Part shown: piece after piece, positions 1,550 through 50,783 of the stretch
Layout: each line of letters begins with the position of its first letter
Numbering within the stretch: the stretch's first letter is position 1
Assembly (NCBI GenBank): GCA_964578185.1
Contig: CAZOBL010000002.1
Span: forward strand, 15,007 to 69,708
DNA from: an uncultured Thermoplasmatales archaeon
GTDB lineage: Archaea; Thermoplasmatota; E2; DHVEG-1
Direction: 5' to 3'
DNA length: 54,702 nucleotides
Position numbers and translations under genes: made by a program
The notes under the pieces: generated by a model
Told to the model about the DNA's origin: nothing
Database searches by the model: none
What the model saw: the letters and a program-made list of their open reading frames with translations, nothing else

Positions 1550-1559
1550 TTTTAATCCC

Positions 1560-3195: not shown

Positions 3196-3200
3196 AGAAT

Positions 3201-25985: not shown

Positions 25986-26093
25986 CTAAAGTTCACTTTT
26001 TCCCATTTACAAATATTTTAAGGATTTTTTTATTTTATCTATATTCCTGTATTACATTTAAGTATTAATTAAATTATTTCATATTCTTAAGAG

Positions 26094-28855: not shown

Positions 28856-28864
28856 TTTTGAGGA

Positions 28865-30511: not shown

Positions 30512-31863
30512 CTTTCCATAAAGGCTTTGTATGCCAGATATGTTGAGTAAATATCTACTTTGCTTGTAATTTCAAATGGTGCATGCATACTCATAACTGC
30601 AGGACCCATATCAATTACTTCCATCCCAAGTCTTGAGAAATATTTAGCTATGGTCCCTCCACCACCTTTATCTACTTTTCCAAGTTCTCCAGTCTGCCAT
30701 GGGATTTTGTTTTTGTTAAGCATCGTTCTTATTTCATATACATATTCTGCTGTTGCATCATTTGCACTATATTTGCCTCCATGGCCTGTGAATTTAGTCA
30801 TTACAATGCCATATCCTAGTGCAGATGCGTTTTTCAGTTCAAATACTTCTGTGTAATTTGGTGTTACTGCTGCATTCACATCTGCAGATATTACTTTTGA
30901 TTTTAGCATAACTTCATCAACATCTACCTTGGGGTCTAATTGTTTGATAACTGATCTTAAAAAAGTTGTAACTTGTGCCGACTGATTTCCTTCGCTTCCA
31001 ATTTCTTCTTTATCAACAAATAATGCAATTGACGTATGTATTGTTTCGGAAGTATCTAAAATAGCTTTCATTGAGGTATATGCACATACTCTGTCATCTT
31101 GGCCGTATCCACCAATCATTGATTTATCAAAACCAACCTCTCGTGGTTTACATGCAGGCACAGCTTGCAGTTCTGCCGATATAAAATCTTCTTCAATTAA
31201 TCCATAGTCCTTGTTTAATTTCTCAAGTATATTGGCTTTAATTTTTTCTTTAATTTCCCCTCCTTTTATTGGTTTACTACCAATCATAATATCTAGATTC
31301 TCACCTTTTATAGCATCTGAAACTTTTTTTGTATCCTGTACTTCGTGTGAAAGATGAGGCAGAAGATCTGGTACGCAAAATACCGGATCCTTTTCTTTTT
31401 CCCCTATTTTAAAACTAATCTTTTTCCCGTTCTTTGTTAAGATCACTCCATGCAAGGATAAGGGAATTGTAAGCCATTGGAATTTTTTTATTCCGCCATA
31501 ATAATGTGTTTCAAAAAGTGCAATATTGCTATCCGAATCTTCAAACAAAGGTATTTGTTTGATATCTAAACGAGGTGAGTCGACATGTGCGATTACAATT
31601 TTCAATCCTTCTTTTACTGGTTTTTTCCCAGGTTGAATAATTGCTGCTTCTGATTCTCTATTTAAAATAATTTTTTTATTCTTCTTTTTTGCTTGTTTTT
31701 TAATATATTCAATGGACTCTCTTTCTGTTTTTGATTCTTCTAAAAATTTTATATAATTTTCACAAAATTTGAACGAATCTTTAATTTGTTTATCTGAAAA
31801 TTTTTTCCAAGCAGATTCTTTATTATATGCATGTTTACTTTCTTTTTTGTCTTTTTTTGCCAT
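30508..31863 (-). CDS. M18 family aminopeptidase (aspartyl aminopeptidase-like)
   Basis: IAHVDSPRLDIKQ, YGQDDRVC, VDKEEIGS, GGGGTIAKY, SMHAPFE. Confidence 0.88.
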   Translation of the reverse strand: MAKKDKKESKHAYNKESAWKKFSDKQIKDSFKFCENYIKFLEESKTERESIEYIKKQAKKKNKKIILNRESEAAIIQPGKKPVKEGLKIVIAHVDSPRLDIKQIPLFEDSDSNIALFETHYYGGIKKFQWLTIPLSLHGVILTKNGKKISFKIGEKEKDPVFCVPDLLPHLSHEVQDTKKVSDAIKGENLDIMIGSKPIKGGEIKEKIKANILEKLNKDYGLIEEDFISAELQAVPACKPREVGFDKSMIGGYGQDDRVCAYTSMKAILDTSETIHTSIALFVDKEEIGSEGNQSAQVTTFLRSVIKQLDPKVDVDEVMLKSKVISADVNAAVTPNYTEVFELKNASALGYGIVMTKFTGHGGKYSANDATAEYVYEIRTMLNKNKIPWQTGELGKVDKGGGGTIAKYFSRLGMEVIDMGPAVMSMHAPFEITSKVDIYSTYLAYKAFMES

Positions 31864-34925: not shown

Positions 34926-36431
34926 TCAATGATAAATATTAAAATATTTATCTTTCAAATAATCCACAAAAACCTTTGAATTCAAACCTTCACTACAACA
35001 GTTTCTTATTATGTCCTCCGCCATCATAACTCTACCATGATTGTGAATATTTTTTCTAAGCCAATTTAGTATATTTTTAAATTCACCGTTTTCTATATCA
35101 GAATTAAGATTCTCAAATTCTTTAGAAATTTGATTGAATATCTGAGCAGAATATATAGTTCCAATTGCATAAGTAGGAAAGTAACCAAAGTTCCCCCCGC
35201 TCCAATGCATATCCTGTAGTACACCCTCTACATCATTTGAAGGATATATACCAAGCATATCATCCATCTTTTCATTCCAAACTTCCGTAAGATCCGACAC
35301 CTCAATTTTCCCCTCCATTAAATCTGTTTCGATCTCAAATCTAAGTATAACATGCAAACAATAAGTAAGCTCATCTGCCTCAACTCTTATCAAAGAAGGC
35401 TCAACAAGATTTACAATTTTATACCACGAAAATAAATCTATATCTTTGAATTCCTTAGGAGCAATCTTTTTAAACTCAGGAAAAAAGTTTTTCCAAAAAG
35501 ACATATTTCGCCCTATCATATTCTCCCAAAAACGGGATTGAGATTCATGAATTCCTAATGAGGGGGAATCTGAGATTACAGTATCCTTGTAATCGCCCTT
35601 TGGCATACCCAGTTCATATAAAGCATGGCCTGCTTCATGAATTGTTGAAAAAAACGAGAAGAAAGGACCTTGCCTGTTAAAACTAGTGGTAATCCTCACA
35701 TCATAATTTCCCATACTAGTTGTAAATGGATGGGTTGACTCATCAAGACGGGTTGAATGCTCTGGTAATTTCATTTTTTTCAAAATTATTTTACAAATCT
35801 TCTTTTGTTTTTCAGGGCTTATAACGCCATTAAATTTTTTTTGATTTTTAAAAAATTCTGTATTTTTAATTTTTTCAAGAATTTCTATTAGTTCAGGTTT
35901 TAGAAAACTAAATTCTTTTCTAAGTTTATCAACTGTCATCCCTTCTTCATAGTCATCGAGAAGAGTATTGTATTTTGGCCCAGGAATATTAAAAAAAGTG
36001 CAGTATTCTTTTTCTAAATCTACAATTTTTTCAAGATAAGGTGAAAAGATTTTATAATCTTTTTTCTCTCTTGCTCTCTCCCATTCTTGGTAAGCAAGTG
36101 TTGTTGTTTTTGATAGTTTTTCTACAAAATCTGGTGGAACACATCTTGCTTTTTCCACGTCTTTATAAAGTCTTTTTACGACGTTTTTATCATTTTCTGA
36201 TAAATTTTTAAAATTTGATTCTTTTTCTAATTTTTTAATATGATCCCAGAACTGCTCTGATGTTACTTTTTTATGTGAAATTTTTGAAATAAGAGCAGAC
36301 TGCTCAGATTTTTCTTGTGCCCCCATCTTTGGCATATATGTCATCTGATCCCAGCCAATAAGTGATCCTATTCCACCTAGAATTGATAGTTCCTTTTGTC
36401 GCTTATAAATAAAATCAAGTGAATCTTTCAT
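34926..36431 (-). CDS. M32 carboxypeptidase (Taq-type metallocarboxypeptidase)
   Basis: HEAGHALYE zinc motif, HESQSRFWEN, DEL(T)Y.LH, GYFPTY. Confidence 0.9.
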   Translation of the reverse strand: MKDSLDFIYKRQKELSILGGIGSLIGWDQMTYMPKMGAQEKSEQSALISKISHKKVTSEQFWDHIKKLEKESNFKNLSENDKNVVKRLYKDVEKARCVPPDFVEKLSKTTTLAYQEWERAREKKDYKIFSPYLEKIVDLEKEYCTFFNIPGPKYNTLLDDYEEGMTVDKLRKEFSFLKPELIEILEKIKNTEFFKNQKKFNGVISPEKQKKICKIILKKMKLPEHSTRLDESTHPFTTSMGNYDVRITTSFNRQGPFFSFFSTIHEAGHALYELGMPKGDYKDTVISDSPSLGIHESQSRFWENMIGRNMSFWKNFFPEFKKIAPKEFKDIDLFSWYKIVNLVEPSLIRVEADELTYCLHVILRFEIETDLMEGKIEVSDLTEVWNEKMDDMLGIYPSNDVEGVLQDMHWSGGNFGYFPTYAIGTIYSAQIFNQISKEFENLNSDIENGEFKNILNWLRKNIHNHGRVMMAEDIIRNCCSEGLNSKVFVDYLKDKYFNIYH

Positions 36432-37302: not shown

Positions 37303-37806
37303 ATGAAAGTATTTTACGGCGGCTCCATCCAAGGGGCTAAAAAACGTGGTGAAAGATCCGAGATACATCAGTCCTTGATAAATTGTATAAAAAAAAATGG
37401 TTTAGAAATATGTACTGAGCATACTACTGGTAAGGACTATAAAGAGGCCATCAGTAAACTCGAAGAATCTATTGGTAAAATGCCTAAAGACGGCCTTCAA
37501 AGAAGAATATATGTCAGAAATAAAATGGTAGAGGCGGTTGAAAGTGATATATCAGCAGCAATTTTTGAGGTTTCAATTCCAAGTCTTGGTACTGGTATAG
37601 AAATCGCTCATGCATATCTACGTCCTCGTATGGGTCTTAAAACGATACCCGTTCTTTGTTTGTATGAAAAAGATTATTGGCCTAATAAACTATCAACTAT
37701 GATTAGAGGTATATCAAAAGAAGAAATACCTCATTTCAATTTAATGGAATATCAAAGTTTAGATGAAGCTGAAAAAATAATATCTGATTTCCTCTCAGAT
37801 TTATAA
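37303..37806 (+). CDS. Nucleoside 2-deoxyribosyltransferase superfamily protein, DNPH1/RCL-like deoxynucleoside 5'-monophosphate N-glycosidase
   Basis: MKVFYGGSIQGAKKRGE...; VSIPSLGTGIEIAHA parallels the DNPH1 FCGSIRGG...PSLGVGYELG layout. Confidence 0.6.
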   Translation: MKVFYGGSIQGAKKRGERSEIHQSLINCIKKNGLEICTEHTTGKDYKEAISKLEESIGKMPKDGLQRRIYVRNKMVEAVESDISAAIFEVSIPSLGTGIEIAHAYLRPRMGLKTIPVLCLYEKDYWPNKLSTMIRGISKEEIPHFNLMEYQSLDEAEKIISDFLSDL

Positions 37807-38113: not shown

Positions 38114-39337
38114 ATGAGTGAAAATATTATATACTTGCTGAAAGGAGAAAGTTTAATATTTTTAAAGGCAAATAGCGCCGTGTCTAATTCATCTTTTAAA
38201 TATGTATCTCCATTAAATTATGGGGATCAAATTCCCATTTATTTAAGAATACAAGGTGATTTTTTATCATATATAATACTTATTGATAAAAAAAGTAAAA
38301 ATCAATTAATTAAGTTTGTTTTACCTCCTATGGAAAAAAACGAACAAATAAAGATAAGGATTCAGTACTGGGTACTAAATATTAATAAAATGCATAAAAA
38401 TTTACCTTCCAAGAAATCATTTTCCAAAAATAATTTTTTCCCTGAAGAAACTAAAAAATGGCTTGTTTCAACAGAGTCGATACAAAGCAATAATTTTTTA
38501 GTTAAATTTATGTCAAATATATTGAAAGGCATCAATAAAGATATTTTATGGTATGCAAAAAAAGTAGCTTTTTGGAATGCATATCATGGTCTTATTACTA
38601 TTGGCATAAAAATGAGGATGGTTTTTAATCCATTTCTAAATAAATATTTCATGCCGGATAAACATTGGTGGTATATAGAAGATGCTCTTTCCACTCTTCT
38701 GTTTGGCGGTCTTTGTGCCGGAAGAGCAAACCTGATTGCGGCTTTATTGCGAAACAAAGGAATACCAGCTAGAGTTGTTATTTGCACACCAACATATATG
38801 GGAAAAGAATTTTTATTAGATTCACAGCATTATGCTGTTGAATTTTATTGTCCCGATCACGGTTGGGTTAGAACGCAATCTGGTGTTATGCCTCATCCGT
38901 CTAAAAACAATATTGCACTTAGAATTATAACTCCAGATGAAGAGAATATCTCCGGAGGGCCGTTTAGTTTTTATGGCGGTATGCATCCATGGTTTTGGAT
39001 TGACCATGAAGAGATTTTTTTAGGTAAGCCACCTAATGAACTTATGGAATACAAAATACCGGATACAAAGCAGGTTGGTTCTACTTTATCTAGAGGATTT
39101 ATAGAAAAAAAGATGAAAATCCCTAATCATGTGTTGGATGAAATTATAAACATATGTAGCGATAATTGGAAGTTTTTTACAAAAAATGTTGGCCGATGCG
39201 ATAATGATAATAGATTGTTATTTAATGAAGGTTTGGAATGTCAAGAAAAAGCAATAAATTATTTTAATGAGTCTGATTTCCCTAATTTTTTTAAGTCGAT
39301 TAAAAAAGCAAATCAGGAATATTTAAAAATTCACTGA
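38114..39337 (+). CDS. Transglutaminase-like (cysteine protease fold) domain protein
   Basis: Core LLFGGLCAGRANLIAALLRNKGIPARVV, then QHYAVEFYCPDHGWV (Cys and His of the triad). The third triad residue is not obvious by eye. No signal peptide. Confidence 0.65.
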   Translation: MSENIIYLLKGESLIFLKANSAVSNSSFKYVSPLNYGDQIPIYLRIQGDFLSYIILIDKKSKNQLIKFVLPPMEKNEQIKIRIQYWVLNINKMHKNLPSKKSFSKNNFFPEETKKWLVSTESIQSNNFLVKFMSNILKGINKDILWYAKKVAFWNAYHGLITIGIKMRMVFNPFLNKYFMPDKHWWYIEDALSTLLFGGLCAGRANLIAALLRNKGIPARVVICTPTYMGKEFLLDSQHYAVEFYCPDHGWVRTQSGVMPHPSKNNIALRIITPDEENISGGPFSFYGGMHPWFWIDHEEIFLGKPPNELMEYKIPDTKQVGSTLSRGFIEKKMKIPNHVLDEIINICSDNWKFFTKNVGRCDNDNRLLFNEGLECQEKAINYFNESDFPNFFKSIKKANQEYLKIH

Positions 39338-39385
39338 ATTAAGTAATAAATTATTTCAATCAAATTTTTATAGTATTAGTTAAAA

Positions 39386-40720
39386 ATGAAAATTTTACTT
39401 ATCCAGCCTTATCTTTCTAGAAGGCGAATTCAGATACATCCGCCTTTGGGCATAACTCATCTTGCTTCATGTTTAGAACTAGAGGGCCATAATGTTAGAA
39501 TCATTGATTGTTTGGCAATCAATGGTAAAATAGAAGATATTGAAAAAGAATTTAAGAATTTTAAACCAGATATTGTAGGCATTAGTTCTTCAACTGTACA
39601 AATCTATTACGTCTATTCTATCTTTTCATTAGTTAAGCGATTTAACCCAAATTGTTTAACGGTTATCGGAGGGCCTCACCCTTCTATTTTACCTCGTGAG
39701 ACATTAAGTGAGTGTAAGTATATTGATGTTGTTGTTAGAGGAGAAGGTGAACTTACTTTCGTTGACCTCATTAATACATTTGAAAAAAAAGGCCCAGATG
39801 GTTTTTGTGATGTTAGAGGCATAAGCTTTAGAAATGAAGAAAAGATAATCGAGAATAGAGAACGAGGGCTTATTGAAGATTTAGATAGTCTACCACTTCC
39901 TGCTTATCACTTATTACCGATGAAAAAATATATTGGAAAATATGTCACTTCTCCAACTAATAACTCCAAAGTTTCATATAATTATTGTAATATTTCCACC
40001 TCGAGAGGGTGCCCTTATAATTGTATTTTTTGCGCATCAAATGCCTTGTGGGGAAAAAAATTAAGAAAAAAGAGCGCTGAGCGCATTATTGAAGAGATAA
40101 ACCTTTTAAAAGAGTACAATGTAAAAATAATAAATTTTACAGATGATACGTTTCCTATTGATAAAAAAAGAACTAAAAAAATTTGTGAATTAATCCAAAA
40201 GGAAGATATTGATATTTTTTGGAACTGCATAACTAGAGTAGAATTGTTTAACAAGGAAATGGCTTCTTTATTCAATAAATCCAGATGTTGCGGGGTTGAA
40301 TTTGGAATCGAATCTGGTGTACAACAAACATTGGATTTTTTAAATAAAGGTTTTACTGTAAAAGACTCGATTACTGCTGTTAAAAACGCTAAAAAATATG
40401 ATTTAAGAACAGATAGTAATTTTATAATAGGAGTTCCTGGCGAAACAAAAGAGATGATCAATAAAACAATAAATTTTTCAAATTATCTAAACCTTGATTA
40501 TACAGATTTTACACTCTTAACTCCACTTCCTGGCACAAAGCTGTATAATATTGCAAAAGAACAAAACCTTTTTATTACAGAGGATTGGAGCAAGTATACT
40601 TTTTTTACACCGGTTATGAAAGTACCTGGTCTCTCTTCTTTTGATTTAAAATATTTCTTATTTAAAGCATATTTCAATAACCAATTCAATCAATTAAAAA
40701 ATAAATTAAAAGTTAACTGA
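39386..40720 (+). CDS. B12-binding-domain radical SAM protein (class B-like)
   Basis: MKILLIQPY...VGISSST...TVIGGPHPS, then STSRGCPYNCIFCAS. Confidence 0.82.
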   Translation: MKILLIQPYLSRRRIQIHPPLGITHLASCLELEGHNVRIIDCLAINGKIEDIEKEFKNFKPDIVGISSSTVQIYYVYSIFSLVKRFNPNCLTVIGGPHPSILPRETLSECKYIDVVVRGEGELTFVDLINTFEKKGPDGFCDVRGISFRNEEKIIENRERGLIEDLDSLPLPAYHLLPMKKYIGKYVTSPTNNSKVSYNYCNISTSRGCPYNCIFCASNALWGKKLRKKSAERIIEEINLLKEYNVKIINFTDDTFPIDKKRTKKICELIQKEDIDIFWNCITRVELFNKEMASLFNKSRCCGVEFGIESGVQQTLDFLNKGFTVKDSITAVKNAKKYDLRTDSNFIIGVPGETKEMINKTINFSNYLNLDYTDFTLLTPLPGTKLYNIAKEQNLFITEDWSKYTFFTPVMKVPGLSSFDLKYFLFKAYFNNQFNQLKNKLKVN

Positions 40721-40741
40721 CTATAAGTGATATTTTTAAAA

Positions 40742-42160
40742 TCACCTTTTCAATATCTTCTCCTTTATTGGTATTTTTTGGATTAAGTACTGATGTTTCC
40801 CTCTTTCAGTCCTTGGAATTTTTTCTACAAACTCAATACTTAATTTTGTATCCTTGCCGATTTTTTCTTCTATTCTTCTTTTTATTTTGTCACTATCATT
40901 TTGGCTGTATGAATCTCCTTTAACTATTTTTAAAAATAAATTATTTTTATCCTCTTGATGAAATTGAAATTGTTTTACATTTTCTAAAATATTGGCATGA
41001 ATATTAATTGCAGCAATAGGAATTATCCTATCGTCACTTGTAACAATGAAATCTTGTGATCTTCCCTGTATGTTTTTTAAAATAAAGTAATTCCTACCGC
41101 ATTGGCACTTTTCAGAATTATAAATTCCAACATCTCCCGTTTTGTATCTTATTAAAGGAAAAAGAAAATTCCTAAAGCCTGTTCCAACTATTTCTCCCAT
41201 TCCTCCGTCTTTTCCAACTGCTTTTCCGTAACCATCAACTAATTCGGTAATTCCATTTTGCGGAAAAAAATGATAATAATTATTATAACCACAACTTGAT
41301 GCAAAAGCAACTTGTTCAGTATGGCCATATATGTAAATCACTCTGCAATTAAAAACATCTTCAAGTAATTCATGTTGCCAATCATACAAATTTTCACCAG
41401 TACATAATATTGATTTAAGTGATTTAAAACCTTTAAGATTTTTATTTTTTATCTGTTGTGCAATCATTATTATAGAAGATGGATATGAAAGAATATATGA
41501 GGGTTTAAATTTTCTAATTATTTTGATATATTTTGGTAAATTTTTTTCACTTAAATTAAAAGATGATAAAGTTAAATTCCTTCCAAATAAAGATTTTTCC
41601 CAAATTTTTCCCCTATCTGATTGGGAAATTAAACCTTCTTTAATAATGATTGATTTGCTTGTTAAATTACAATTAACTTGATTCAATATTATTTTGAAAA
41701 AAGCAAGTTCTTTAATAAATGATATGGCTTTTTCTTCATAAATCCCAAGAGGTATACCTGTTGATCCTCCTGTTGTCATATAACTAAATTTATGTTCGGG
41801 ATAATTTTTTGCTTTTAATTCTTTAATATTTCTTCTTATGATTTCTTTATTGAGAAACGGTATTTTTTGCAAATCTTTCAAACTATGGATGTCTTCTGGT
41901 TTCAAATCTTTAGAATTAAATAATTTTCTGTAATACGGAACATTCTCATATGCATGATTCAACAATTCATTTAATTTTTTAAATTGGTATTCTTCTATTT
42001 GCTTTTCACTCCAGTATTGTGATTTTTTTATGAATTTATAAAATTCATTGAATGTTGAATAATTAAAAAGTATCATAAGAGCTGCAGGTGTTGCCGATGT
42101 AGCATAACTTGCTTTATTTTGTAAGTAACTGTGCAGGTGTTTTTTTAATTTATATCTCAT
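40742..42160 (-). CDS. Adenylate-forming ligase of the PaaK / coenzyme F390 synthetase / CapK family
   Basis: P-loop-like YMTTGGSTGIPLGIY, YGHTEQ, YKTGDVG, C-terminal RTERGKHQYL. Confidence 0.75.
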   Translation of the reverse strand: MRYKLKKHLHSYLQNKASYATSATPAALMILFNYSTFNEFYKFIKKSQYWSEKQIEEYQFKKLNELLNHAYENVPYYRKLFNSKDLKPEDIHSLKDLQKIPFLNKEIIRRNIKELKAKNYPEHKFSYMTTGGSTGIPLGIYEEKAISFIKELAFFKIILNQVNCNLTSKSIIIKEGLISQSDRGKIWEKSLFGRNLTLSSFNLSEKNLPKYIKIIRKFKPSYILSYPSSIIMIAQQIKNKNLKGFKSLKSILCTGENLYDWQHELLEDVFNCRVIYIYGHTEQVAFASSCGYNNYYHFFPQNGITELVDGYGKAVGKDGGMGEIVGTGFRNFLFPLIRYKTGDVGIYNSEKCQCGRNYFILKNIQGRSQDFIVTSDDRIIPIAAINIHANILENVKQFQFHQEDKNNLFLKIVKGDSYSQNDSDKIKRRIEEKIGKDTKLSIEFVEKIPRTERGKHQYLIQKIPIKEKILKR

Positions 42161-42362
42161 AAATATTTTTTTACCTCATTTTGAAATTATATAACCTTGT
42201 ATATATTTGAAAACAATACTATAATGTTGAGTCATTTCTTAATTTATTTGTTAAGACAACTAATTATTAATTTGAAAAGTTGCACTACTTAAAAATTTCT
42301 GCTAATATAACAAAACATTTATATATTAGCAAAACTTAATTATAAGATGGTGATAATTAAAC

Positions 42363-42428
42363 ATGGCAGTAGGCAGATCGTTACCCAGCGCGGCTCTTAT
42401 CTCTATTAACAAAGAGGAAGAAGAATAA
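42363..42428 (+). CDS. Candidate 21-aa small ORF (MAVGRSLPSAALISINKEEEE) in a GC-rich island between the ligase and YcaO genes; possible modified-peptide precursor or small RNA
   Basis: GGTGAT (42349-42354) lies 8 nt upstream of the ATG. TATA-like TTTATATAT is at 42318-42326. An oligo-T tract follows at about 42444-42449. 42363-42404 is about 55% GC in otherwise very AT-rich spacer. Confidence 0.35.
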   Translation: MAVGRSLPSAALISINKEEEE

Positions 42429-42487
42429 ACAAAAATATTCAATTTTTTATTATATTTTCATTTAATATAAAATATTAAGTATTGTTT

Positions 42488-44248
42488 TTAAGAGTTAAAA
42501 AAACTGTCACTTATTTTTTTAATCAAATCTGTATAATATTTATCAGTTTCAAAATTTGGTTCTTCTGGGTTAAATGGATTTTTTGAAATATCAAAATTAA
42601 AAAGATTTTTTTCGTTACAGTTATCTAATATCATAGTTTCTTTAGAGATACACTTTCTTTCTTTTAGTAGTTTTATTACTTTTAGATATTTCTTTGCCTT
42701 TTCATTTTTGTTAATTGAGTTATATAAAATAGCAAGAATTTCATAAAGATTAATAGTTTGTCTAAAGAAATTTTCTCTTATTAGTGTAAAGATATAAGAA
42801 GAGGGTTCTTTTGACAAAAAATCTTCGATATTATTTATCAATATTTTTATCTTTTTTTCATTTTTTATCCATTTGTCATTTGTAGCATAAAGATAAAAAT
42901 CCTTAATTCCATAAAAATAATCTACTCTTTCACTGATCTTTGACTCTTTTGTAAAACCTTTTATAAATGGGTCAAAATCATTAGATATGGGTGGAATAAT
43001 GACTCTAACAACTGGAAAACCTATAATGTTATGAGTATAATCAACTGTAAGCATATCCCAATTATTTCTTTTACATACAGAAATTAGTTCATTACAATCA
43101 TCTAATGAGTCATTGTTATAAATGCTCTTAAGATTATTATAGGAAATTATTTCTCCATTATCTAAAAAATCAAGATCACTATAATATTCATAATTTCTAA
43201 TAAGATAACGGAATGGGTCCATATTCCCAGAATATTTGTTCCCAATTATCTCAGTCCAACATTTGTATATCAAATCAGTTTCCTTGCGCATCATAAGTTC
43301 TTTCTCATCACCTGTATCTAAAGTCTGCATGTACTCTGTAAAACATCTGAGTATTGCTTCCTCCAGATTAACATGAGATGCACATTCAATTCTCTTGTAA
43401 TATTGCCTTTTCTTAAGTGGATTATCTTTATCTTTAATGTTGTTATTAATAAAAACTAACCCAATTGTTGGTATATTATTTCCCATTGTAAAATCCTTAA
43501 TTACGGTTTCTATATTGAGTGATTTAAACATTTCAATATAATCAAGAATTTTCTCATTTGAAATTGTCTTTTGATCAATCGTAGAGCATTTCATTCTTTT
43601 AAGAAGAACCTTTACAACAGCGTATCTTTCAAATATCTCACATGTTGCTTGAGCAATAGCTTCTTCAATTGTATTTCCTGCTGCAAGACCATTAGACCCA
43701 CTTATTGTTTCAATAACTCTAAGAGGAATACTTTTGAATTTTTTATCAGTCAATGAAAAAGAGTCTAAGCTTTTATTTAAAAGATTAGACTTTTGATACA
43801 TCTTGTGTTTTTCTCTTGAAAGATTTCCGCCAAAATATATAGAGTTTAAATCTTCAAAATTTATCACATCATCTTCAGTTTTTTTAAAATTTTTTAGAAA
43901 TTTCCTATCAAAGAGATCATCTAATAGCTTTCTATATCTATAGGAGTCCTTAGGAATAGGAATATTTTGAAAGAAAAACATAGTCGCAGAAAATCTTTCA
44001 ACCATCTCTGCAAATGCTGATGCTTTTGATAACAATGAAGTTGTACCTTTTCCATAAGTTGAAAAATTCAATTCTTTTATTTTGCTTTCACCAGTATATA
44101 ATTCAGATTTACCTTTACCAATCTTGTTTTCTTTATATAATAAATTTAGATCAATTCTCTTGAAACCATCCGATATTCTTTTAATAGTATTCTCTGGCTT
44201 GTCACATTTGTAAGTTTCAAATGTTTTCGGCGATTTTTTTAAAATCAT
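42488..44248 (-). CDS. YcaO domain protein (ATP-dependent peptide backbone-modifying enzyme family) with helical C-terminal extension
   Basis: YGKGTTSLLSKASAFAEMVERFS and SGSNGLAAGNTIEEAIAQATCEIFERYAV are canonical YcaO ATP/Mg motifs. 586 aa. No adjacent TfuA or E1-like partner. Confidence 0.85.
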   Translation of the reverse strand: MILKKSPKTFETYKCDKPENTIKRISDGFKRIDLNLLYKENKIGKGKSELYTGESKIKELNFSTYGKGTTSLLSKASAFAEMVERFSATMFFFQNIPIPKDSYRYRKLLDDLFDRKFLKNFKKTEDDVINFEDLNSIYFGGNLSREKHKMYQKSNLLNKSLDSFSLTDKKFKSIPLRVIETISGSNGLAAGNTIEEAIAQATCEIFERYAVVKVLLKRMKCSTIDQKTISNEKILDYIEMFKSLNIETVIKDFTMGNNIPTIGLVFINNNIKDKDNPLKKRQYYKRIECASHVNLEEAILRCFTEYMQTLDTGDEKELMMRKETDLIYKCWTEIIGNKYSGNMDPFRYLIRNYEYYSDLDFLDNGEIISYNNLKSIYNNDSLDDCNELISVCKRNNWDMLTVDYTHNIIGFPVVRVIIPPISNDFDPFIKGFTKESKISERVDYFYGIKDFYLYATNDKWIKNEKKIKILINNIEDFLSKEPSSYIFTLIRENFFRQTINLYEILAILYNSINKNEKAKKYLKVIKLLKERKCISKETMILDNCNEKNLFNFDISKNPFNPEEPNFETDKYYTDLIKKISDSFFNS

Positions 44249-44534: not shown

Positions 44535-46145
44535 ATGAAAATATTTGCTATATTGATCATATTTTTTTTATTCTTTAGTAGTGTTATGGTTTCAGCATAC
44601 GTAGAAAACAACGAATATAAACTAGAAAAATTAGAGGATAACAATTTCAAAGAAATTAGAATAGCTATGTTAGGTGAAGAAATTCTTGAGATGTCAGCGA
44701 AATTTTTATTCGTGCGGGTTCTAGATGGATATACCTGGAAAGTAGGAAATAACAATTATACTTTTAAAGTAACAGAAATCTATGATGAAGACATAATGAA
44801 TGGTGAGTTAAATACTGATAATTATGATGTTTTGTTAGTTCCTGGTAGTGTAGGCGCAGATGAATCACAAGTTAAAGGGTTATTTTCTTTTTTGCCAAGG
44901 GTGAAAAGATGGAAAAATTATATAGTGGATTTTATTAAAGATGGAGGAGGGTACACAGGTTCATGTGGTGCAACAAATTTAATAACCGAGTACGGTAAAA
45001 AACCAGAATCGCCAATCGAAAGAAACATTGATAGAAGTAGCTTAGATGTTTCTGCTGTTAAAACTTGGTATGATAGTGCAAGTATGCCTCTAATGGGAGA
45101 ATTTTTAGGTTTCTCTCCTTCTAGAGTTGGAGCTTATAACTACTTTTATTGCATGTATCAACCCGACGTAGAAGTTGAAGATGTCGAAGATTTTGATATT
45201 TGCTTATTACATGTTGGTTGTCCGATGGATATTAGTTTGAATACTTCCCATCCTTTATTTGATGATTATCAAAAAGATACATGCCGTGTTTTATGGGCTG
45301 CTGGACCTGCTTTTGTTACACCAAAAAAATCAGATAGAACATTAAGTATTATGGCAAGATATCCAGTTGAGGAATTATCTGAAAATGTTTCAACACAAAT
45401 ACATGCTTGGGATTATACCGGTGGAATTAGAGGTCTTATGAAAGGCCTATTTAAATCGATAAAAAATGGTGAAGGTTTAATGGGGGCATATTATAATGCT
45501 GGAGATTGGAAACTAACAAATGAAGTAATAAACATAAATTTCTCCAATAAACCCTGTATGACAGCTGAGATCTATCCAAATGAGAATAAAGGAAGAATTT
45601 TTCTTAATGCTTTGCATCCTGAATATCCTGTTTGGTGGGGTGGCCGTATTAAAGAAATGGAAGATACAAATGATAATTGCTTATCCAAGGGTCTTTATAA
45701 ATGGGTAGATATGACCCCAATAGAAGAAACTGTTGAAGATGAAGAAACCTATAATTGGTGGATGGTAAGAAGAGAAGTTGCGTGGGTTGCAAAGATACCA
45801 GATGATGATCTGCCCCCTGTTTATGGTCCAAGTCAGGTCTGTGATTTTGAGACTAATCCTGATTCTGAAGTCTTTACAATAATGGGTAATTCTGAAACAT
45901 CTGAAGGAACTATATCTTTAGATTTATATTACAGATATTCAGAAAATAATTCTTATTGGTCTGAATGGACTTTGTTTGATACTGATTTCGATGATTCTGA
46001 TGGTTGGAATTGGGAATTTACTTCACCAAATGGTTCTGGTTATTATCAATTTTATAGTATTAGAAATGTAGAACATCAAGATACTATTGAAACTGAGAAA
46101 GTTCCACCAGGAGCAGATACTCAGGTTTGTGTTGATTTAACTTAA
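44535..46145 (+). CDS. Secreted protein with class I glutamine-amidotransferase-like (BPL_N-type) N-terminal domain
   Basis: Signal peptide MKIFAILIIFFLFFSSVMVSA. YDVLLVPGS...FIKDGGGYTGSCGA resembles the GATase1-like nucleophile-elbow region. Weak call. Confidence 0.35.
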   Translation: MKIFAILIIFFLFFSSVMVSAYVENNEYKLEKLEDNNFKEIRIAMLGEEILEMSAKFLFVRVLDGYTWKVGNNNYTFKVTEIYDEDIMNGELNTDNYDVLLVPGSVGADESQVKGLFSFLPRVKRWKNYIVDFIKDGGGYTGSCGATNLITEYGKKPESPIERNIDRSSLDVSAVKTWYDSASMPLMGEFLGFSPSRVGAYNYFYCMYQPDVEVEDVEDFDICLLHVGCPMDISLNTSHPLFDDYQKDTCRVLWAAGPAFVTPKKSDRTLSIMARYPVEELSENVSTQIHAWDYTGGIRGLMKGLFKSIKNGEGLMGAYYNAGDWKLTNEVININFSNKPCMTAEIYPNENKGRIFLNALHPEYPVWWGGRIKEMEDTNDNCLSKGLYKWVDMTPIEETVEDEETYNWWMVRREVAWVAKIPDDDLPPVYGPSQVCDFETNPDSEVFTIMGNSETSEGTISLDLYYRYSENNSYWSEWTLFDTDFDDSDGWNWEFTSPNGSGYYQFYSIRNVEHQDTIETEKVPPGADTQVCVDLT

Positions 46146-46337: not shown

Positions 46338-46664
46338 ATGCCTGGACATGGTCGCAGACGCGGAAGATGCCGTGGAAGAAGACGTGGTAGAAGATGGATA
46401 GAACAACCCTTTGAACCACAACGTTTTCAACCACAATATGGTCAAAACCCTCAGAAACAAATAATTCTAACAATAGAAGAACTGGAAATTCTGCGGTTAA
46501 TAGAACTAGAAGGACTTACGCAGGAAGAAGCAGCAGCCATGATGGGTGTTTCCAGGAAAACACTATGGAAGGATTTGCACAAAGCACGTAAAAAAATTGC
46601 AGAAGCACTAGTAAATGGTTACACGATCCATGTCAAAGGTGGGGATTATATCCAAAGGAAATAA
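46338..46664 (+). CDS. DUF134 (UPF0251) family predicted DNA-binding protein with an arginine-rich N-terminus
   Basis: LTIEELEILRLIELEGLTQEEAAAMMGVSRKTLWKDLHKARKKIAEAL is the sigma-70 region-4-like HTH typical of DUF134. N-terminus is MPGHGRRRGRCRGRRRGRRW. Confidence 0.85.
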   Translation: MPGHGRRRGRCRGRRRGRRWIEQPFEPQRFQPQYGQNPQKQIILTIEELEILRLIELEGLTQEEAAAMMGVSRKTLWKDLHKARKKIAEALVNGYTIHVKGGDYIQRK

Positions 46665-46686
46665 AAATATATGAGGTGAAAAAAAT

Positions 46687-47055
46687 ATGCCAGGTGGAGA
46701 TAGAACAGGCCCTGAAGGATTTGGTCCAAGAACAGGTCGAGCACTAGGATATTGCAGTGGTTACGATAGCCCAGGTTACACTAAAGGTGCCCCTCGTGGT
46801 GGACGAGGATACGGCCGTGGCTGGGGCCGAGGCTTCGGACGCGGTTTTGGACGTGGTCGAGGCTTTTGGCGTAGAGGATACTACCCTGAGCCATACCATG
46901 AACCAGCACCAAGTTACAGACCAGCATATCCTCAACCCACTAGAGATGAAGAAAAAAAATATCTAGAGGATATGATCAAAAACCTTGAAGAAGAACTAAA
47001 ATCTATGAAAGACCGTCTTCAGGAACTAAATAAAGAAAAAAAATCTCCTGAATAA
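46687..47055 (+). CDS. DUF5320 family protein (Gly/Arg-rich N-terminal half, C-terminal coiled coil)
   Basis: MPGGDRTGPEGFGPRTGRALGYCSG..., RGG/RGF run GRGYGRGWGRGFGRGFGRGRGFWRRGYY, then EEKKYLEDMIKNLEEELKSMKDRLQELNKEK. Confidence 0.8.
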   Translation: MPGGDRTGPEGFGPRTGRALGYCSGYDSPGYTKGAPRGGRGYGRGWGRGFGRGFGRGRGFWRRGYYPEPYHEPAPSYRPAYPQPTRDEEKKYLEDMIKNLEEELKSMKDRLQELNKEKKSPE

Positions 47056-47138
47056 AAAAAGGAGATTTTTCTCTATCATATTTTTTATAATGTATATCTG
47101 CATTCCAAGCTAAGACTTCAAAAAAAGATGTGATTTAT

Positions 47139-47954
47139 ATGATTCAAAAGCAGAAAAAACAACCAAATGTTAAAAAAAACCTAGAAAAAGTTAAACATAA
47201 AATAGTGGTTTTAAGTGGAAAAGGCGGGGTAGGTAAAAGCACTGTTGCCGCAAATCTTGCGGTAACATTATCCGCTAAAGGTTACAAGGTAGGTTTACTA
47301 GACAGTGACCTACACGGTCCAAGCATCCCCAAAATTGTAGGTATCGAAGATGAAAAAGTACGACCTTCAAAAAATGGTATATCACCTGTTTTAACTCATA
47401 ACGATCTGAAAGTAATGTCTATGGGTTTACTCTTAGAAGATCGCGATTCTCCAGTGATCTGGCGTGGACCTATGAAGATGGGTGCTATACGTCAACTACT
47501 TGGAGAGGTAGATTGGGGTGAACTGGATTTTTTAATAATCGATTTGCCCCCTGGAACGGGTGATGAACCACTTAGTATCGCTCAACTTATAGATGATATA
47601 TCAGGCGCGATTGTTGTTACAACTCCTCAGGATGTTGCAATAGTAAGTGTAAGAAAAAGTATTAATTTCGTGAAGAAACTAAACATGAATTTACTTGGTG
47701 TTGTAGAAAACATGAGTGGTTTTACATGTCCAAATTGTGGTAAAAAAGTAGATATTTTTAAGACAGGTGGCGGTAAAAAGGCAGCTGAGGATTTTAAGAT
47801 ACCATATCTAGGAAGCATTCCTCTTGACCCGGAAATTGTACAAACAGGGGACTCGGGAAATAGTTTTATGGCAAAAAACAAGGATAAAAATACTGCTGAC
47901 TCTTTTAACAGGATTGTTAAAAATATTGAAGAAGTTTTAGGAGGTGAAAAATAA
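47139..47954 (+). CDS. Mrp/NBP35 (ApbC) family iron-sulfur cluster carrier ATPase
   Basis: Deviant Walker A VLSGKGGVGKST, DLPPGTGDE, and CPNCGKKVDIF (CxxC cluster-bridging motif). The ORF opens at GTG 47130. Confidence 0.88.
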   Translation: MIQKQKKQPNVKKNLEKVKHKIVVLSGKGGVGKSTVAANLAVTLSAKGYKVGLLDSDLHGPSIPKIVGIEDEKVRPSKNGISPVLTHNDLKVMSMGLLLEDRDSPVIWRGPMKMGAIRQLLGEVDWGELDFLIIDLPPGTGDEPLSIAQLIDDISGAIVVTTPQDVAIVSVRKSINFVKKLNMNLLGVVENMSGFTCPNCGKKVDIFKTGGGKKAAEDFKIPYLGSIPLDPEIVQTGDSGNSFMAKNKDKNTADSFNRIVKNIEEVLGGEK

Positions 47955-47957
47955 ATT

Positions 47958-48191
47958 ATGCCTGGTGGAGATGGAACTGGTCCTGATGGTAGCGGTCCTG
48001 TAGCAGGCCGTGGCCGAGGCCGAGGGCAAGGCCACCGTAGCGGCGGTCGTGGACTTGGTGGTGGAACTGCTGCGGGTCCAGGTGGTGAATGCCGCTGTCC
48101 AAATTGCGGTCATCGTGAACCACATCAGCTTGGTCAGCCTTGTTACTCGAAAAAATGTCCTAAATGCGGCGCTCCGATGACAAGAGCATGA
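47958..48191 (+). CDS. Small DUF5320-like protein with C-terminal CxxC...CxxC zinc-ribbon
   Basis: MPGGDGTGPDGSGPVAGRGRGRGQG shares its N-terminal motif with 46687. CRCPNCGHREPHQLGQPCYSKKCPKCGAPM. GGAGGTGA lies 10 nt upstream. Confidence 0.75.
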   Translation: MPGGDGTGPDGSGPVAGRGRGRGQGHRSGGRGLGGGTAAGPGGECRCPNCGHREPHQLGQPCYSKKCPKCGAPMTRA

Positions 48192-48271
48192 TAAAAATTA
48201 AATAACCCTTGTAAATAAAAAAAAGACGAAGATTTATATATGATATATATGTGAAGGTGATTGGCTTTATT

Positions 48272-48655
48272 ATGAAAATATGTGTTTCATCGAAAGGAGA
48301 TAATTTAGATGCAGAGGTAGATCCACGTTTTGGTCGTTGTAAATATTTTTTGATTATTGACCCAGATTCTTGGGATTTTGAATCAGTTGACAATGAAAGT
48401 GTTATGGCTAGTGGTGGAGCAGGAATTCAAGCAGCGCAAAATGTTGCAGATAAAGGATGTAGTATTGCAATTACTGGTAATATGGGTCCTAATGCTTTTA
48501 GAACTCTTGAAGCTGCAGGTATTGACGTGTATACTGGTGCAAGTGGAACAGTAAAGGATGCAGTTGAAAGTTTTAAAAAAGGTGAACTTAAAAAATCAGA
48601 AAACCCTACCGTTGGGGGTCATCATGGTATGGGTAGAATGTCTGGAGGTAGATAA
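48272..48655 (+). CDS. NifX/NifB-C-terminal-like (dinitrogenase FeMo-cofactor biosynthesis domain, Nitro_FeMo-Co) protein 1
   Basis: MKICVSSKGDNLDAEVDPRFGRCKYFLIID...GAGIQAAQNVADKGCSIAITGNMGPNAFRTLEAAGIDVY. ATG 48272 is preferred to GTG 48251; GGTGAT lies 10 nt upstream. Confidence 0.82.
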   Translation: MKICVSSKGDNLDAEVDPRFGRCKYFLIIDPDSWDFESVDNESVMASGGAGIQAAQNVADKGCSIAITGNMGPNAFRTLEAAGIDVYTGASGTVKDAVESFKKGELKKSENPTVGGHHGMGRMSGGR

Positions 48656-48659
48656 AAAA

Positions 48660-49046
48660 ATGAAAATTGGTATACCCTCGCAGGGTGATAGAGGTTTAGA
48701 GGAAAAAGTTGGTGCACATTTTGGACGCGTCCCAACATATACTATTGTTGATTTAGAGTCAAATGATGTTAAAGTTGTTCCAAATACAAGTCATCATATG
48801 GGTGGTAGTGGTGATCCACCTGAGATTATGAAAAAAGAAGGGGTATGCGCTATGGTATGTCAAGGTCTTGGACGCCGAGCTATCAGTCTTTTTGAACAAA
48901 TTGGAATAGATGTATATATAGGGGCAACAGGTACAGTCAAAGATGCAGTTGATGCTTTTAAAAATGATAAACTTCAGAAAGCAAATGAGGGCAACGCCTG
49001 TCAACAGCATGCTTTTCGTGGTCAAGGAAAACATCATCATCATTAG
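48660..49046 (+). CDS. NifX/NifB-C-terminal-like protein 2, with a natural C-terminal His4 tail
   Basis: MKIGIPSQGDRGLEEKVGAHFGRVPTYTIVD...MVCQGLGRRAISLFEQIGIDVY...GKHHHH-stop. Internal ATG 48660 is chosen because the longer ORF overlaps the upstream gene. Confidence 0.82.
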   Translation: MKIGIPSQGDRGLEEKVGAHFGRVPTYTIVDLESNDVKVVPNTSHHMGGSGDPPEIMKKEGVCAMVCQGLGRRAISLFEQIGIDVYIGATGTVKDAVDAFKNDKLQKANEGNACQQHAFRGQGKHHHH

Positions 49047-49089
49047 AGAAATCCAGCATAAAATAATTCTTTATTTTTTTGGGATTTAT

Positions 49090-49953
49090 ATGAAAACACA
49101 TCTAGATTGCATACCTTGTTTTGTAAAACAGTCTCTTGAAGCTGCACGTATGGCTTCAGATGATCCATGTGTTCAGGAAAAAGTTTTAAAAGAGGTTATG
49201 AAACATCTTCAAAGCATTTCTTTTGAAGACTCTCCACCAGAACTCTCCAGAGAAGTTCATCGCATTATTAGAGATATTACCAACAATAATGATCCTTATA
49301 AAAAAGTTAAAAATGAGTCAAATGAGAAAATAAAAAAAATTTTTAACCATCTAAAAAAACAAGTATCTGAGTCAGATGACCCGCTTTTAACAGCTATTAA
49401 ACTTGCTATTGTGGGAAACGTTATTGATTTTGGAACAATGAACCGTTTTAATGTTGATGAAATGATAGAGCATGCTCTTGAGCGTGATTTTGATGATAGA
49501 GATTACCCTCTTTTTAAAAACACTCTTAAAGATGCGGAAACTGTTCTTTTTTTAGCGGATAACACAGGGGAGATTTTTTTTGATAAACTCCTCTTAGAAA
49601 AACTAGAAAAAAGGGGTAAAACTATTACCTATGTTGTAAAACAAAACCCGATTATAAATGATGCATTACTTTATGATGTAGAGTATGCGGGTATTGACAA
49701 AATTGCAGATGTAATAACTTATGACAACGGTCAGACAATTTCAACACCGGGTATTGTAATGAATTACGCATCAGATGAGTTTAAAAAAGAATTTAATGAA
49801 TCTGATATGGTACTATCTAAAGGTCAGGGCAACTATGAAGGTTTAAGTGATGTAGATCGTCGTGTGTTTTTTTTACTTGTTGCAAAATGCCCGCTTGTAG
49901 CCAAGGATATCGGCTCAAATGTAGGTAAACTTATATTGAAGGTGAATAAATGA
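49090..49953 (+). CDS. DUF89 (ARMT1-like, damage-control phosphatase family) protein
   Basis: MKTHLDCIPCFVKQSLEAAR..., DPYKKVK, FLADNTGEIFFDKLL, SKGQGNYEGL. ATG 49090 is chosen over the overlapping upstream extension. Confidence 0.8.
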   Translation: MKTHLDCIPCFVKQSLEAARMASDDPCVQEKVLKEVMKHLQSISFEDSPPELSREVHRIIRDITNNNDPYKKVKNESNEKIKKIFNHLKKQVSESDDPLLTAIKLAIVGNVIDFGTMNRFNVDEMIEHALERDFDDRDYPLFKNTLKDAETVLFLADNTGEIFFDKLLLEKLEKRGKTITYVVKQNPIINDALLYDVEYAGIDKIADVITYDNGQTISTPGIVMNYASDEFKKEFNESDMVLSKGQGNYEGLSDVDRRVFFLLVAKCPLVAKDIGSNVGKLILKVNK

Positions 49954-50783
49954 TTATATCTATTGCAAGTGGAAAGGGTGGCACGGGTAAAACAACGGTT
50001 GCTACAAACCTTGCACTGTGCTTGGATAAAGCGCAGTTTTTTGATTGTGATGTTGAAGAACCCAATTCAAATATTTTTCTAAATGCAGAAATTGACAACG
50101 TTGAAAATGTTTCATCTGACATACCAGAAATCGATAAGAATAAATGCACTTTTTGTGGTAGATGTGCAGAATTCTGCCGCTATAACGCTCTTGCTGTTGT
50201 AAAAGAAAATGTTGTAGTGTTCCCAGAGCTTTGTCATTCATGCAGGGGATGTCAAATTGTGTGTCCTGAGGATGCCGTGGGTTTTAAACCACGTTTCTTA
50301 GGAAAAATCGAATCAGGAAAATCTGGTAAAATTGATTTTTATCAGGGTGTTTTAAATGTTGCAGAAATCCAGGCAGTACCAGTTATAAAAGCGCTTAAGA
50401 AAAAAATAAGATCTGACCGGGATGTCATTCTGGATGCACCCGCAGGTAACTCCTGTCCAATGGTTGAAACCGTAATAGATACTGACTACTGCATTCTTGT
50501 CACTGAGGCCACTCCTTTTGGTCTTAACGATTTAAAAATCGCTGTTGAAATACTGCGTGATTTAAAAATTCCAATGGGTGTTATTATAAACCGTGATGGA
50601 ACAGGATACAAAGATGTTGAAGTTTTTTGCACAAATGAACATATCCCTATTATTTTAAAAATACCATATGATGAAAAAATCGCAAAATTATATTCCAGAG
50701 GTATTCCTTTTGTAAAAAGGATGCCTGTGTGGTGTAAAAAATTTTTAGAGGTATACAACAAGATTTCCAAGGAGGTGAAATAA
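49950..50783 (+). CDS. MinD/CooC-type P-loop ATPase with inserted 2x[4Fe-4S] ferredoxin domain (COG1149-like), copy 1
   Basis: IASGKGGTGKTTVATNLA, CTFCGRCAEFCRYNAL, CHSCRGCQIVCPEDAV, ILDAPAG. The start overlaps the DUF89 stop (ATGA). Confidence 0.85.
   Translation: MIISIASGKGGTGKTTVATNLALCLDKAQFFDCDVEEPNSNIFLNAEIDNVENVSSDIPEIDKNKCTFCGRCAEFCRYNALAVVKENVVVFPELCHSCRGCQIVCPEDAVGFKPRFLGKIESGKSGKIDFYQGVLNVAEIQAVPVIKALKKKIRSDRDVILDAPAGNSCPMVETVIDTDYCILVTEATPFGLNDLKIAVEILRDLKIPMGVIINRDGTGYKDVEVFCTNEHIPIILKIPYDEKIAKLYSRGIPFVKRMPVWCKKFLEVYNKISKEVK

Follow-up and report, generated by a model that had tools for sequence, protein, structure and literature searches.

YcaO enzymes are versatile catalysts that modify peptide backbones and, to our knowledge, most members of the family have no known substrate. 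Here, we analysed a stretch of 54,702 nucleotides from an uncultured Thermoplasmatales archaeon (the window), in which a YcaO gene lies together with genes for a transglutaminase-like (TGase-like) protein, a B12-type radical S-adenosylmethionine enzyme (B12-rSAM), and a CapK/PaaK-type adenylate-forming ligase. Between the ligase and YcaO genes, a small open reading frame (ORF) encodes a peptide of 21 residues. We consider it probable (roughly 65%) that this locus encodes a modification system of the type found for peptides that are made by the ribosome and modified after translation (RiPPs), with the 21-residue peptide as its substrate. The comparisons point to a RiPP-like pathway that depends on a YcaO and in which both the set of partners and the precursor family are new. 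An initial annotation had proposed an undescribed archaeal RiPP-like cluster for peptide or protein modification; this proposal is supported, and none of the three contrary results that it had named was obtained.

The closest functional analogy appears to be bottromycin (Btm/Bot, Streptomyces), whose pathway comprises partner-less YcaOs, radical SAM methyltransferases, and a precursor whose core is N-terminal and whose C-terminal follower is removed by a hydrolase (PMC5103208). The window locus likewise combines a YcaO lacking an E1-like or TfuA partner with a B12-type radical SAM enzyme, its precursor appears to be leaderless, and an N-terminal core preceding an acidic C-terminal follower would fit. 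In contrast, the precursors are unrelated in sequence, there is no conserved Cys for a thiazoline, and the window cluster has no M17 aminopeptidase, amidohydrolase, P450, or O-methyltransferase. The follower would be short (~5-15 residues), the TGase-like partner is peculiar to the present system, and the host is archaeal. A macroamidine is also unlikely, because Met removal would leave an N-terminal Pro. As the other defining genes are missing, we regard bottromycin as an analogy and not as a sign of membership.

The YcaO of E. coli (EcYcaO) thioamidates the ribosomal protein uL16 and has no TfuA encoded nearby, and the authors of that study expect that YcaOs have further protein substrates (PMC13063428). 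The window YcaO resembles this uL16 Met82 thioamidase (PDB codes 4Q84-4Q86) in its two-domain architecture and length (586 aa), finds its best fold match in it, and shares the lack of a TfuA or E1-like partner encoded nearby. In contrast, the identity is 15-16%, and EcYcaO acts on a folded protein and has no small ORF near its gene, whereas here the peptide, TGase-like, and radical SAM genes travel along with the YcaO gene. The McrA-thioglycine YcaO of methanogens (MJ1094), which works with TfuA, is also archaeal and acts on backbone amides, and 6PE3 is the top PDB sequence match of the window YcaO. Nevertheless, the window YcaO is ~200 aa longer and has neither tfuA nor mcr nearby.

The B protein of lasso-peptide pathways, a leader peptidase that offers a tentative analogy, is, like the window TGase-like protein, a cytoplasmic TGase-fold Cys/His enzyme encoded beside a short precursor gene. 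However, the position usually taken by Asp as third catalytic residue is not conserved here, the window protein has in addition a beta-sandwich at its N-terminus and a helical bundle at its C-terminus, and the probable recognition part of the window peptide is C-terminal, not N-terminal. The annotated neighbours include no Asn-synthetase-like C cyclase, RiPP recognition element (RRE), or PqqD-like domain. Among archaeal RiPPs, only lanthipeptides were experimentally validated according to a 2025 survey (PMC12144867), and surveys of archaeal RiPP clusters mention 'YcaO-related' clusters only in generic terms. Our full-text literature searches (YcaO with transglutaminase, follower peptide, Thermoplasmatota, archaeal B12-rSAM) returned no description of the gene set or of the peptide.

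A conserved peptide gene beside the YcaO

A total of 37 YcaO-family loci were fetched, and their ORFs were called and clustered all against all. The search for small ORFs was an unbiased all-against-all comparison of every ORF of 25-220 aa in these loci. The resulting clusters were mostly alternative-frame shadows of big genes, with one exception, a set of intergenic ORFs of 26-41 aa (e.g., MPSFTASYGKFLSLNKEDEEEE...). We then scanned the window and all loci (2.18 Mb in total) in six frames for Φ-Φ-S-Φ-[NKDE]-x (Φ, hydrophobic) followed by an acidic run, in ORFs of at most 90 aa. The sole match in the window was the ORF at 42363-42428 on the plus strand, the other matches were confined to the clade of YcaOs with a TGase-like partner, and the 139 other YcaO loci (1.8 Mb) yielded 0 matches. 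The peptides of this family have 18-29 aa; their N-terminal half varies and is followed by the conserved motif G-x-Φ-Φ-S-[IL]-N and a polyacidic tail. The window peptide, MAVGRSLPSAALISINKEEEE, combines a variable N-terminal half with the conserved L-I-S-I-N-K and an EEEE tail. The family was found solely beside one clade of YcaOs of ~600 aa, in ~15 independent metagenomic clusters. The locus thus shows one generic hallmark of RiPPs, a short candidate precursor gene located with the genes of modifying enzymes, and the conserved small ORF beside the YcaO gene on which the initial proposal depended was found by both motif scan and profiles.

In the closest relative, L166 (YcaO 56% identical), the gene of the peptide MPAVDSLAIGVLLSINKEEE has precisely the same position and orientation as in the window, just past the stop codon of the YcaO gene and on the other strand. 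L173 (YcaO 64% identical) encodes MPTTSGLPFGVLLSINKEEE, and L172 encodes three paralogous peptides, MPMTSGLPFEVILSINNE, MPTVTSIPDGILRSINKEEE, and MPASIPLPDGCLLSINKEEE. A hidden Markov model (HMM) was built from the five sequences of L166, L173, and L172, with the window ORF left out; among 93,650 stop-to-stop ORFs, the window ORF was its top non-training match (E = 0.0011). By these comparisons, the window copy is a real but divergent member of the family. Of the short ORFs in the 327-nt gap between the ligase and YcaO genes, the one at 42363-42428 (+) is conserved and the others are not: three further candidates, of 38, 31, and 20 aa, have no homologues and were rejected, the first being an antisense shadow of the peptide ORF (Table 1). 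Five peptide variants matched no family in Pfam and NCBIfam scans.

The conservation pattern is that of a translated gene. An ATG start is found in all 18 aligned copies, GGTGA or GGAGG lies 5-10 nt upstream in most, and the conserved Leu, Ser, Ile/Leu, and Asn are each encoded by 2-5 different synonymous codons across the 18 copies. In the window, the peptide ORF has a GC content of 44%, whereas the spacer is otherwise at 16.5%. Several loci (L172, L087, L089, L091, and L001) each carry two or three paralogues. The peptide gene is conserved, selected at the protein level, and often multi-copy. It also appears to have its own TATA box and ribosome-binding site, whose function as signals we infer; TATA-like elements precede most other copies too.

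Along the peptide, residues 3-8 are variable and are followed by the conserved C-terminal motif and the acidic tail. The Ser, located 13-14 residues from Met1, is invariant, the Gly and the Asn are near-invariant (17/18), and a Tyr/Phe-Gly-Lys motif is usual, being absent from the window's own sub-clade. Most copies lack Cys, and the extreme C-terminus is not conserved, as tail length and end residues vary. This combination of a conserved C-terminal part and a variable N-terminal part suggests follower-guided recognition. In the 17 copies whose start can be assigned, the second residue is Pro, Ala, or Val, so that, given the known specificity of methionine aminopeptidase, excision of Met1 is expected.

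Table 1 Position and description of the features of the YcaO locus and of other window features discussed in the text
Feature	Position	Strand	Description
TGase-like Cys/His protein	38114-39337	+	407 aa; PF01841 E 8e-9, above gathering; no signal peptide
B12-rSAM, 'type A' subfamily	39386-40720	+	444 aa; PF02310 4.9e-25 and PF04055 9.7e-24
CapK/PaaK-type adenylate-forming ligase	40742-42160	-	472 aa; PaaK/F390/DVU_1553-like, below all curated cutoffs
YcaO	42488-44248	-	586 aa; PF02624 4.3e-46; predicted second C-terminal domain of E. coli YcaO type
Candidate precursor peptide gene	42363-42428	+	21 aa, MAVGRSLPSAALISINKEEEE; motif scan and sub-clade HMM
TATA-like TTTATATA	42318-42325	+	Read from sequence; putative promoter element of peptide gene
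Shine-Dalgarno GGTGA	42349-42353	+	9 nt before peptide ATG; putative
Oligo-T run	42443-42448	+	After peptide stop codon; read from sequence
38-aa ORF (rejected)	42326-42442	-	In the 327-nt gap
31-aa ORF (rejected)	42197-42292	+	In the 327-nt gap
20-aa ORF (rejected)	42347-42409	+	In the 327-nt gap
hyp167	37303-37806		
hyp536	44535-46145	+	536 aa; N-terminal signal peptide
M32 carboxypeptidase	34926-36431		
M18 aminopeptidase	30511-31863		
Radical SAM protein	28862-30508	+	549 aa; weak similarity to TIGR04013 (B12/rSAM) and MiaB
Second B12-rSAM	20885-22201	+	Type B; 26% identical to the cluster's B12-rSAM
Two apparent paralogues	24020-25339 and 26091-27392	+	~435 aa each; similar N-termini (NPWT..D(E)..HYP..EWW)
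AglB/STT3-type oligosaccharyltransferase	6502-10761	+	1,420 aa
Block of genes	46338-51647	+	See text

A core gene set with variable companions

All four large genes are present as ORFs at the stated coordinates, and the domain families given to them in the initial annotation were confirmed by Pfam and NCBIfam scans. The orientations had been listed there in a form that we consider mis-stated, and are corrected to plus for the TGase-like gene, plus for the B12-rSAM gene, minus for the ligase gene, plus for the small peptide gene, and minus for the YcaO gene, the YcaO and the ligase thus being encoded on the minus strand. The stated absence of an adjacent TfuA, E1-like, dehydrogenase, or mcr gene was upheld over ~10 kb by domain scans, and TfuA and Mcr domains were found in 0 of the 30 annotated window ORFs, which include all large ORFs between 28.9 and 51.6 kb. 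The window is archaeal, with an archaeal Pth2, split GMP synthase A/B, a GGGP synthase above cutoff, and an AglB/STT3-type oligosaccharyltransferase. The YcaO cluster has a GC content of 26-30%, and the part of the window with the lowest GC (42-44 kb) lies within it.

In the neighbour-joining tree of the YcaOs, the loci with the peptide and a TGase-like gene form essentially one clade. Within this clade, a TGase-like homologue adjoins the YcaO gene in 13 of 18 non-redundant clusters, the exceptions being mostly contigs of 3-4 kb, and a B12-rSAM or a MiaB/RimO-type radical SAM enzyme adjoins it in nearly all clusters. Beside orthologous YcaOs, the TGase-like and B12-rSAM genes are therefore retained and not lost. 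Gene content is kept while order and orientation vary among the loci, which points to functional linkage rather than inherited synteny. By these counts, the clustering of three of the four large genes exceeds chance, the ligase being the one for which it does not. The conserved core comprises the peptide, the YcaO, and the TGase-like protein, with the type A B12-rSAM as the usual companion.

Other companions are more variable and include MiaB-like radical SAM enzymes, C25/PorU-like peptidases, a SAM methyltransferase, and CapK/PaaK-type ligases. The C25-like peptidases lack a signal peptide in the three loci of the peptide clade that were examined (L001, L087, and L169). Such variation of tailoring genes around a fixed core is the pattern observed in biosynthetic clusters. 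The sister clade (L004/L005, L007, L094, and L097-L103) has YcaOs of ~600 aa and neither a TGase-like gene nor the acidic-tailed peptide. Its neighbouring genes encode three PEMT/ICMT-like methyltransferases and an ABC transporter, a UbiA-type prenyltransferase, a type B B12-rSAM, or a MiaB-like radical SAM enzyme. An acidic-tailed peptide, equivalent or different, was sought in the sister clade, L006, L092, and L096, and none was found. The orphan YcaOs of the sister clade may have protein- or lipid-linked substrates.

The richest version of the cluster is that of L169 (ERZ23498389 scaffold_13486, positions 386-11973), which is a candidate for expression studies. Besides the peptide MPCVEASYGKFLSINKDEEEE, the YcaO, and the TGase-like gene, it comprises a radical SAM gene, a split B12-binding ORF, a type A B12-rSAM, a C25-like peptidase, a SAM methyltransferase, a MiaB-like radical SAM gene, and a distant paralogue of the ligase. 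Genes resembling methylthiotransferases of the MiaB/RimO family are found in L003 (7223-9795), L091, L095, L169, and L176, and they score below every curated cutoff. They lie directly beside the peptide and YcaO genes, with two in tandem in L003, and a homologue that is 42-48% identical is also found in a glycan cluster (L176). The Ile variant of the peptide (GKIL) is observed only in loci with such a gene (L003, L091, and L095), which may hint at a modification site.

The probable modifying enzymes

The window YcaO clearly belongs to the YcaO superfamily, with 158 bits for PF02624 (gathering threshold 25.7). Residues E81, E84, R85, N192, E204, E207, R208, R301, and E305 are invariant in an alignment of 30 family sequences, and the alignment offset maps these ATP/Mg residues onto N187/E199/E202/R203 of EcYcaO; the catalytic motifs are thus intact, as had been noted from the letters. 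Models for characterised subfamilies all remained below their curated cutoffs, namely TIGR03266 for methanogen marker 1 (85.1 bits, cutoff 365), NF040716 for the EcYcaO equivalog (66.2 bits, cutoff 700, over residues 63-270 only), and SagD TIGR03604 (86.1 bits, cutoff 219). Assignments to the McrA, EcYcaO, and thiazole/oxazole-modified microcin (TOMM) types were therefore rejected. No adjacent E1-like/Ocin-ThiF gene (C protein) or FMN dehydrogenase gene was found in the window or in the related loci. These scores and the missing partner genes bear out the earlier view that the locus is neither the methanogen McrA-thioglycine arrangement nor a canonical azole cluster, and the YcaO does not group with the TfuA-dependent McrA enzymes.

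The best PDB sequence match of the YcaO is 6PE3 (E = 2e-13). Its AlphaFold2 (AF2) model (pLDDT 90) matched 4Q86 best, over the full length (Foldseek E = 1e-18, ~620-660 aligned columns, TM-score ~0.55), followed by MJ1094, LynD, and MusD. According to this model, the C-terminal extension, which had been described as long and helical, is a folded second domain of the EcYcaO type. The YcaO family comprises ~60 relatives of ~600 aa with 39-64% identity, all metagenomic. Of 185,579 species-representative genomes, just two encode a close relative, both being 'Thermoplasmatales archaeon' metagenome-assembled genomes.

With regard to the TGase-like protein, Cys201 (GGLCAG) and His239 (DSQHY) are invariant, while the usual Asp position is not conserved. 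In the AF2 model (pLDDT 84.5), the transglutaminase core is preceded by a beta-sandwich at the N-terminus and followed by a bundle of three helices at the C-terminus. Among PDB entries, the model matches the putative cysteine protease 3ISR best (E = 3e-12), followed by the animal TG2/TG3; together with PF01841, these matches confirm the proposed transglutaminase/cysteine-protease fold. The family is rare, as a profile search found 86 representatives at E < 1e-30 among 1.84 billion (1.84e9), of which ~35-40 are full length.

The B12-rSAM exhibits the cluster motif CxxxCxxC as CPYNCIFC at residue 209. Its B12-binding and radical SAM domains (PF02310, 88 bits; PF04055, 85 bits) agree with the class-B-like call made earlier, and no curated equivalog cutoff was reached. 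The best curated matches of the radical SAM enzymes are B12 enzymes of the BchE/HpnJ type, and they show no SPASM/PqqE-type signatures. Orthologues of the type A enzyme, 46-72% identical, are present in L003, L006, L169, L172, and L173, those of L090 and L096 score ~51%, and a 35% variant occurs in L001/L087/L089; type A orthologues were found only in YcaO clusters. The type B enzymes are more dispersed: YcaO loci such as L088 and L094, a glycan cluster (L175), and the window itself, as a second gene (Table 1), encode them. The 549-aa radical SAM protein is the product of a third radical SAM gene within 20 kb, with an M18 aminopeptidase and an M32 carboxypeptidase gene close by. The related loci that were compared contain no homologue of either peptidase.

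The ligase, a possible bystander

The ligase is the part of the proposed cluster whose role is least certain. Its best NCBIfam match is the DVU_1553 family, with 146 bits for a cutoff of 300, and it remained below the cutoffs for PaaK (TIGR02155, 113.8/646) and F390 synthetase (TIGR03335, 73/459); the PDB match is PaaK (4R1L, E = 5e-27). According to precomputed hits, it carries CapK_C (PF27533) and belongs to a wider CapK_C/AMP-binding family with >1,600 matches. The claim of a four-gene cluster holds for the YcaO, the TGase-like protein, and the B12-rSAM, which recur, and does not hold for the ligase, which is present in a minority of clusters (~3/15) and is not part of the core.

The ligase could be a bystander from surface-glycan metabolism that happens to lie between the radical SAM and peptide genes and does not act on the peptide. 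We consider this a serious possibility, somewhat short of an even chance, since the family is large, the ligase is missing from most peptide clusters, and its closest homologues (57% and 53% identity) lie in nucleotide-sugar/glycan clusters with DegT aminotransferases, sugar epimerases, and carbamoyl-, sulfo-, acetyl-, and glycosyltransferases. On the other hand, the ligase genes of the window, of L086/L168 (two in tandem), and of L167 directly adjoin the peptide gene, and in the window and in L086/L167 no annotated neighbour is a sugar gene. Furthermore, a distant paralogue (27% identical) present in L169/L170 is located next to the TGase-like gene in L169, and a homologue follows the YcaO gene in the peptide-less locus L100. 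We rate the ligase as an accessory tailoring enzyme recruited from the CapK_C/AMP-binding family.

A probable follower-guided pathway

A pathway can be proposed from these observations. The peptide would be made from its own promoter and would lose Met1. Its conserved C-terminal half, comprising G-x-Φ-Φ-S-[IL]-N and the acidic tail, would serve as a follower-type recognition element and dock on the YcaO, possibly on its EcYcaO-like second domain. With ATP, the YcaO would phosphorylate a backbone amide, and the activated amide would be converted into a thioamide or, as the main alternative, into an oxazoline via the invariant Ser. We slightly favour the thioamide, since thioamides are formed by MJ1094 and EcYcaO, the closest relatives that have been characterised, and EcYcaO does so without a TfuA encoded nearby. 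The B12-rSAM would add a C-methyl group or another radical modification. The TGase-like Cys/His enzyme would cut off the acidic follower or make an isopeptide or transamidation link, and in the window the CapK/PaaK-type ligase could add an optional ATP-dependent amide or acyl decoration. In the absence of a conserved exporter, the product may act inside the cell. Charge complementarity between basic enzymes (pI 8.6-9.5 for all four) and the acidic tail was also considered; this argument was not used, because the charge of the domains differs greatly from one family member to another and a GC content of 30% by itself leads one to expect proteins rich in Lys.

Several points weigh against this pathway. 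The evidence for it consists of comparative genomics on metagenomic contigs, and EcYcaO, which the YcaO matches best in fold, acts on a folded ribosomal protein and not on a peptide. Most of the peptide is conserved and just ~4-6 N-terminal residues vary, unlike typical hypervariable RiPP cores. The window peptide is the most divergent of its family, with A-A where most have G-K, and its E value with the whole-family HMM is 0.24, yet it is the best ORF of the window. No peptide was detected in L006 and L092, two members of the clade, on the DNA at hand. Finally, none of the loci showed a conserved exporter, and neither an RRE domain nor an immunity gene was found.

Some of these points would suit a YcaO that modifies a folded cellular protein, as EcYcaO does with uL16 and the methanogen YcaO with McrA, the peptide being an activator, a sulfur relay, or a regulator. 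The best structural match is the full length of the uL16-thioamidating EcYcaO, including its second domain, there is no exporter, and the sister clade has equally long YcaOs with neither the peptide nor the TGase-like gene. However, the occurrence of the peptide and of the TGase-like gene is strictly tied to a single YcaO clade, and the peptides are multi-copy with variable N-termini, as expected of substrates and not of cofactors. In addition, tailoring enzymes vary around the core, the EcYcaO equivalog score is far below its cutoff, and the authors of the EcYcaO study stress that there is no small ORF near their gene. We consequently find a protein substrate improbable.

A comparably small chance is given to the peptide being a scaffold that is sacrificed in the making of a cofactor or other small molecule, as for pyrroloquinoline quinone (PQQ), mycofactocin, or pearlin-type compounds, with residues that are cross-linked or extended and then excised by the TGase-like enzyme or a C25-like peptidase. 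The shortness and overall conservation of the peptide, including the Ser, Gly, and Asn and the usual Tyr/Phe-Gly-Lys, could be explained in this way, as could the radical SAM enzymes, the peptidases, the lack of an exporter, and the occasional presence of a ligase able to act on carboxylates. In contrast, the variable extreme C-terminus argues against C-terminal extension chemistry, Tyr/Phe-Gly-Lys is missing in the window's sub-clade, and the radical SAM enzymes, which match the BchE/HpnJ type best, lack the SPASM/PqqE-type signatures expected for such cross-links. A chance adjacency with a small ORF that is not a gene, to which the mixed orientations and the many spurious short ORFs of AT-rich genomes might point, is effectively refuted by the recurrence of the core in ~15 independent clusters with shuffled order, by the 0 motif matches in 1.8 Mb of control loci, by codon-level conservation, and by the ORF being a GC island.

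Other features of the window

The products of hyp167, hyp536, the M32 carboxypeptidase gene, and a NosD-like gene were rejected as cluster members, as they have no homologue in any related locus. The hyp536 gene is divergent from (transcribed away from) the YcaO gene; its product has no Pfam or NCBIfam match and is unrelated to the C25-like peptidases of related loci. The block at 46338-51647 encodes DUF134, DUF5320, a Mrp/NUBPL-type ParA, two Nitro_FeMo-Co (NifB/NifX-like) proteins, an ARMT1-like phosphatase, and two CbiA+4Fe-4S proteins, and its GC content is 35-38%, compared with 26-30% for the YcaO cluster. The product of the first of the two apparent paralogues had no match in an NCBIfam scan. 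In the oligosaccharyltransferase, the archaeal STT3 model matches the N-terminal ~630 residues only. Rfam and tRNA scans of the window gave no matches.

Implications

A bolder version of the RiPP-type reading, which we hold to be unlikely, is that the locus represents a new archaeal RiPP class defined by a leaderless peptide of ~20 residues, an acidic C-terminal follower, and a two-domain YcaO with an obligatory TGase-fold Cys/His partner. If this were true, the TGase-fold protein would be a new kind of YcaO partner, replacing E1-like, Ocin-ThiF, or TfuA proteins. It could deliver sulfur for thioamidation, as a Cys persulfide, or couple amide activation to transamidation or cyclisation. The follower-only logic would be only the second known for RiPPs, after bottromycin.

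For the family as a whole, the 21-residue peptide, with at least 20 relatives, provides a concrete substrate candidate for an orphan YcaO clade. The minimal set, which consists of the genes for the peptide, the YcaO, and the TGase-like protein and may be extended by the B12-rSAM gene, is directly testable by heterologous expression. If the pathway is confirmed, it would contribute a new type of YcaO partner and a second case of RiPP logic guided by a follower, and the naturally varied tailoring sets, comprising B12-rSAMs, MiaB-like enzymes, C25-like peptidases, and CapK-type ligases, would become available for enzymology. The sister clade without the peptide may hold new protein-modifying YcaOs.

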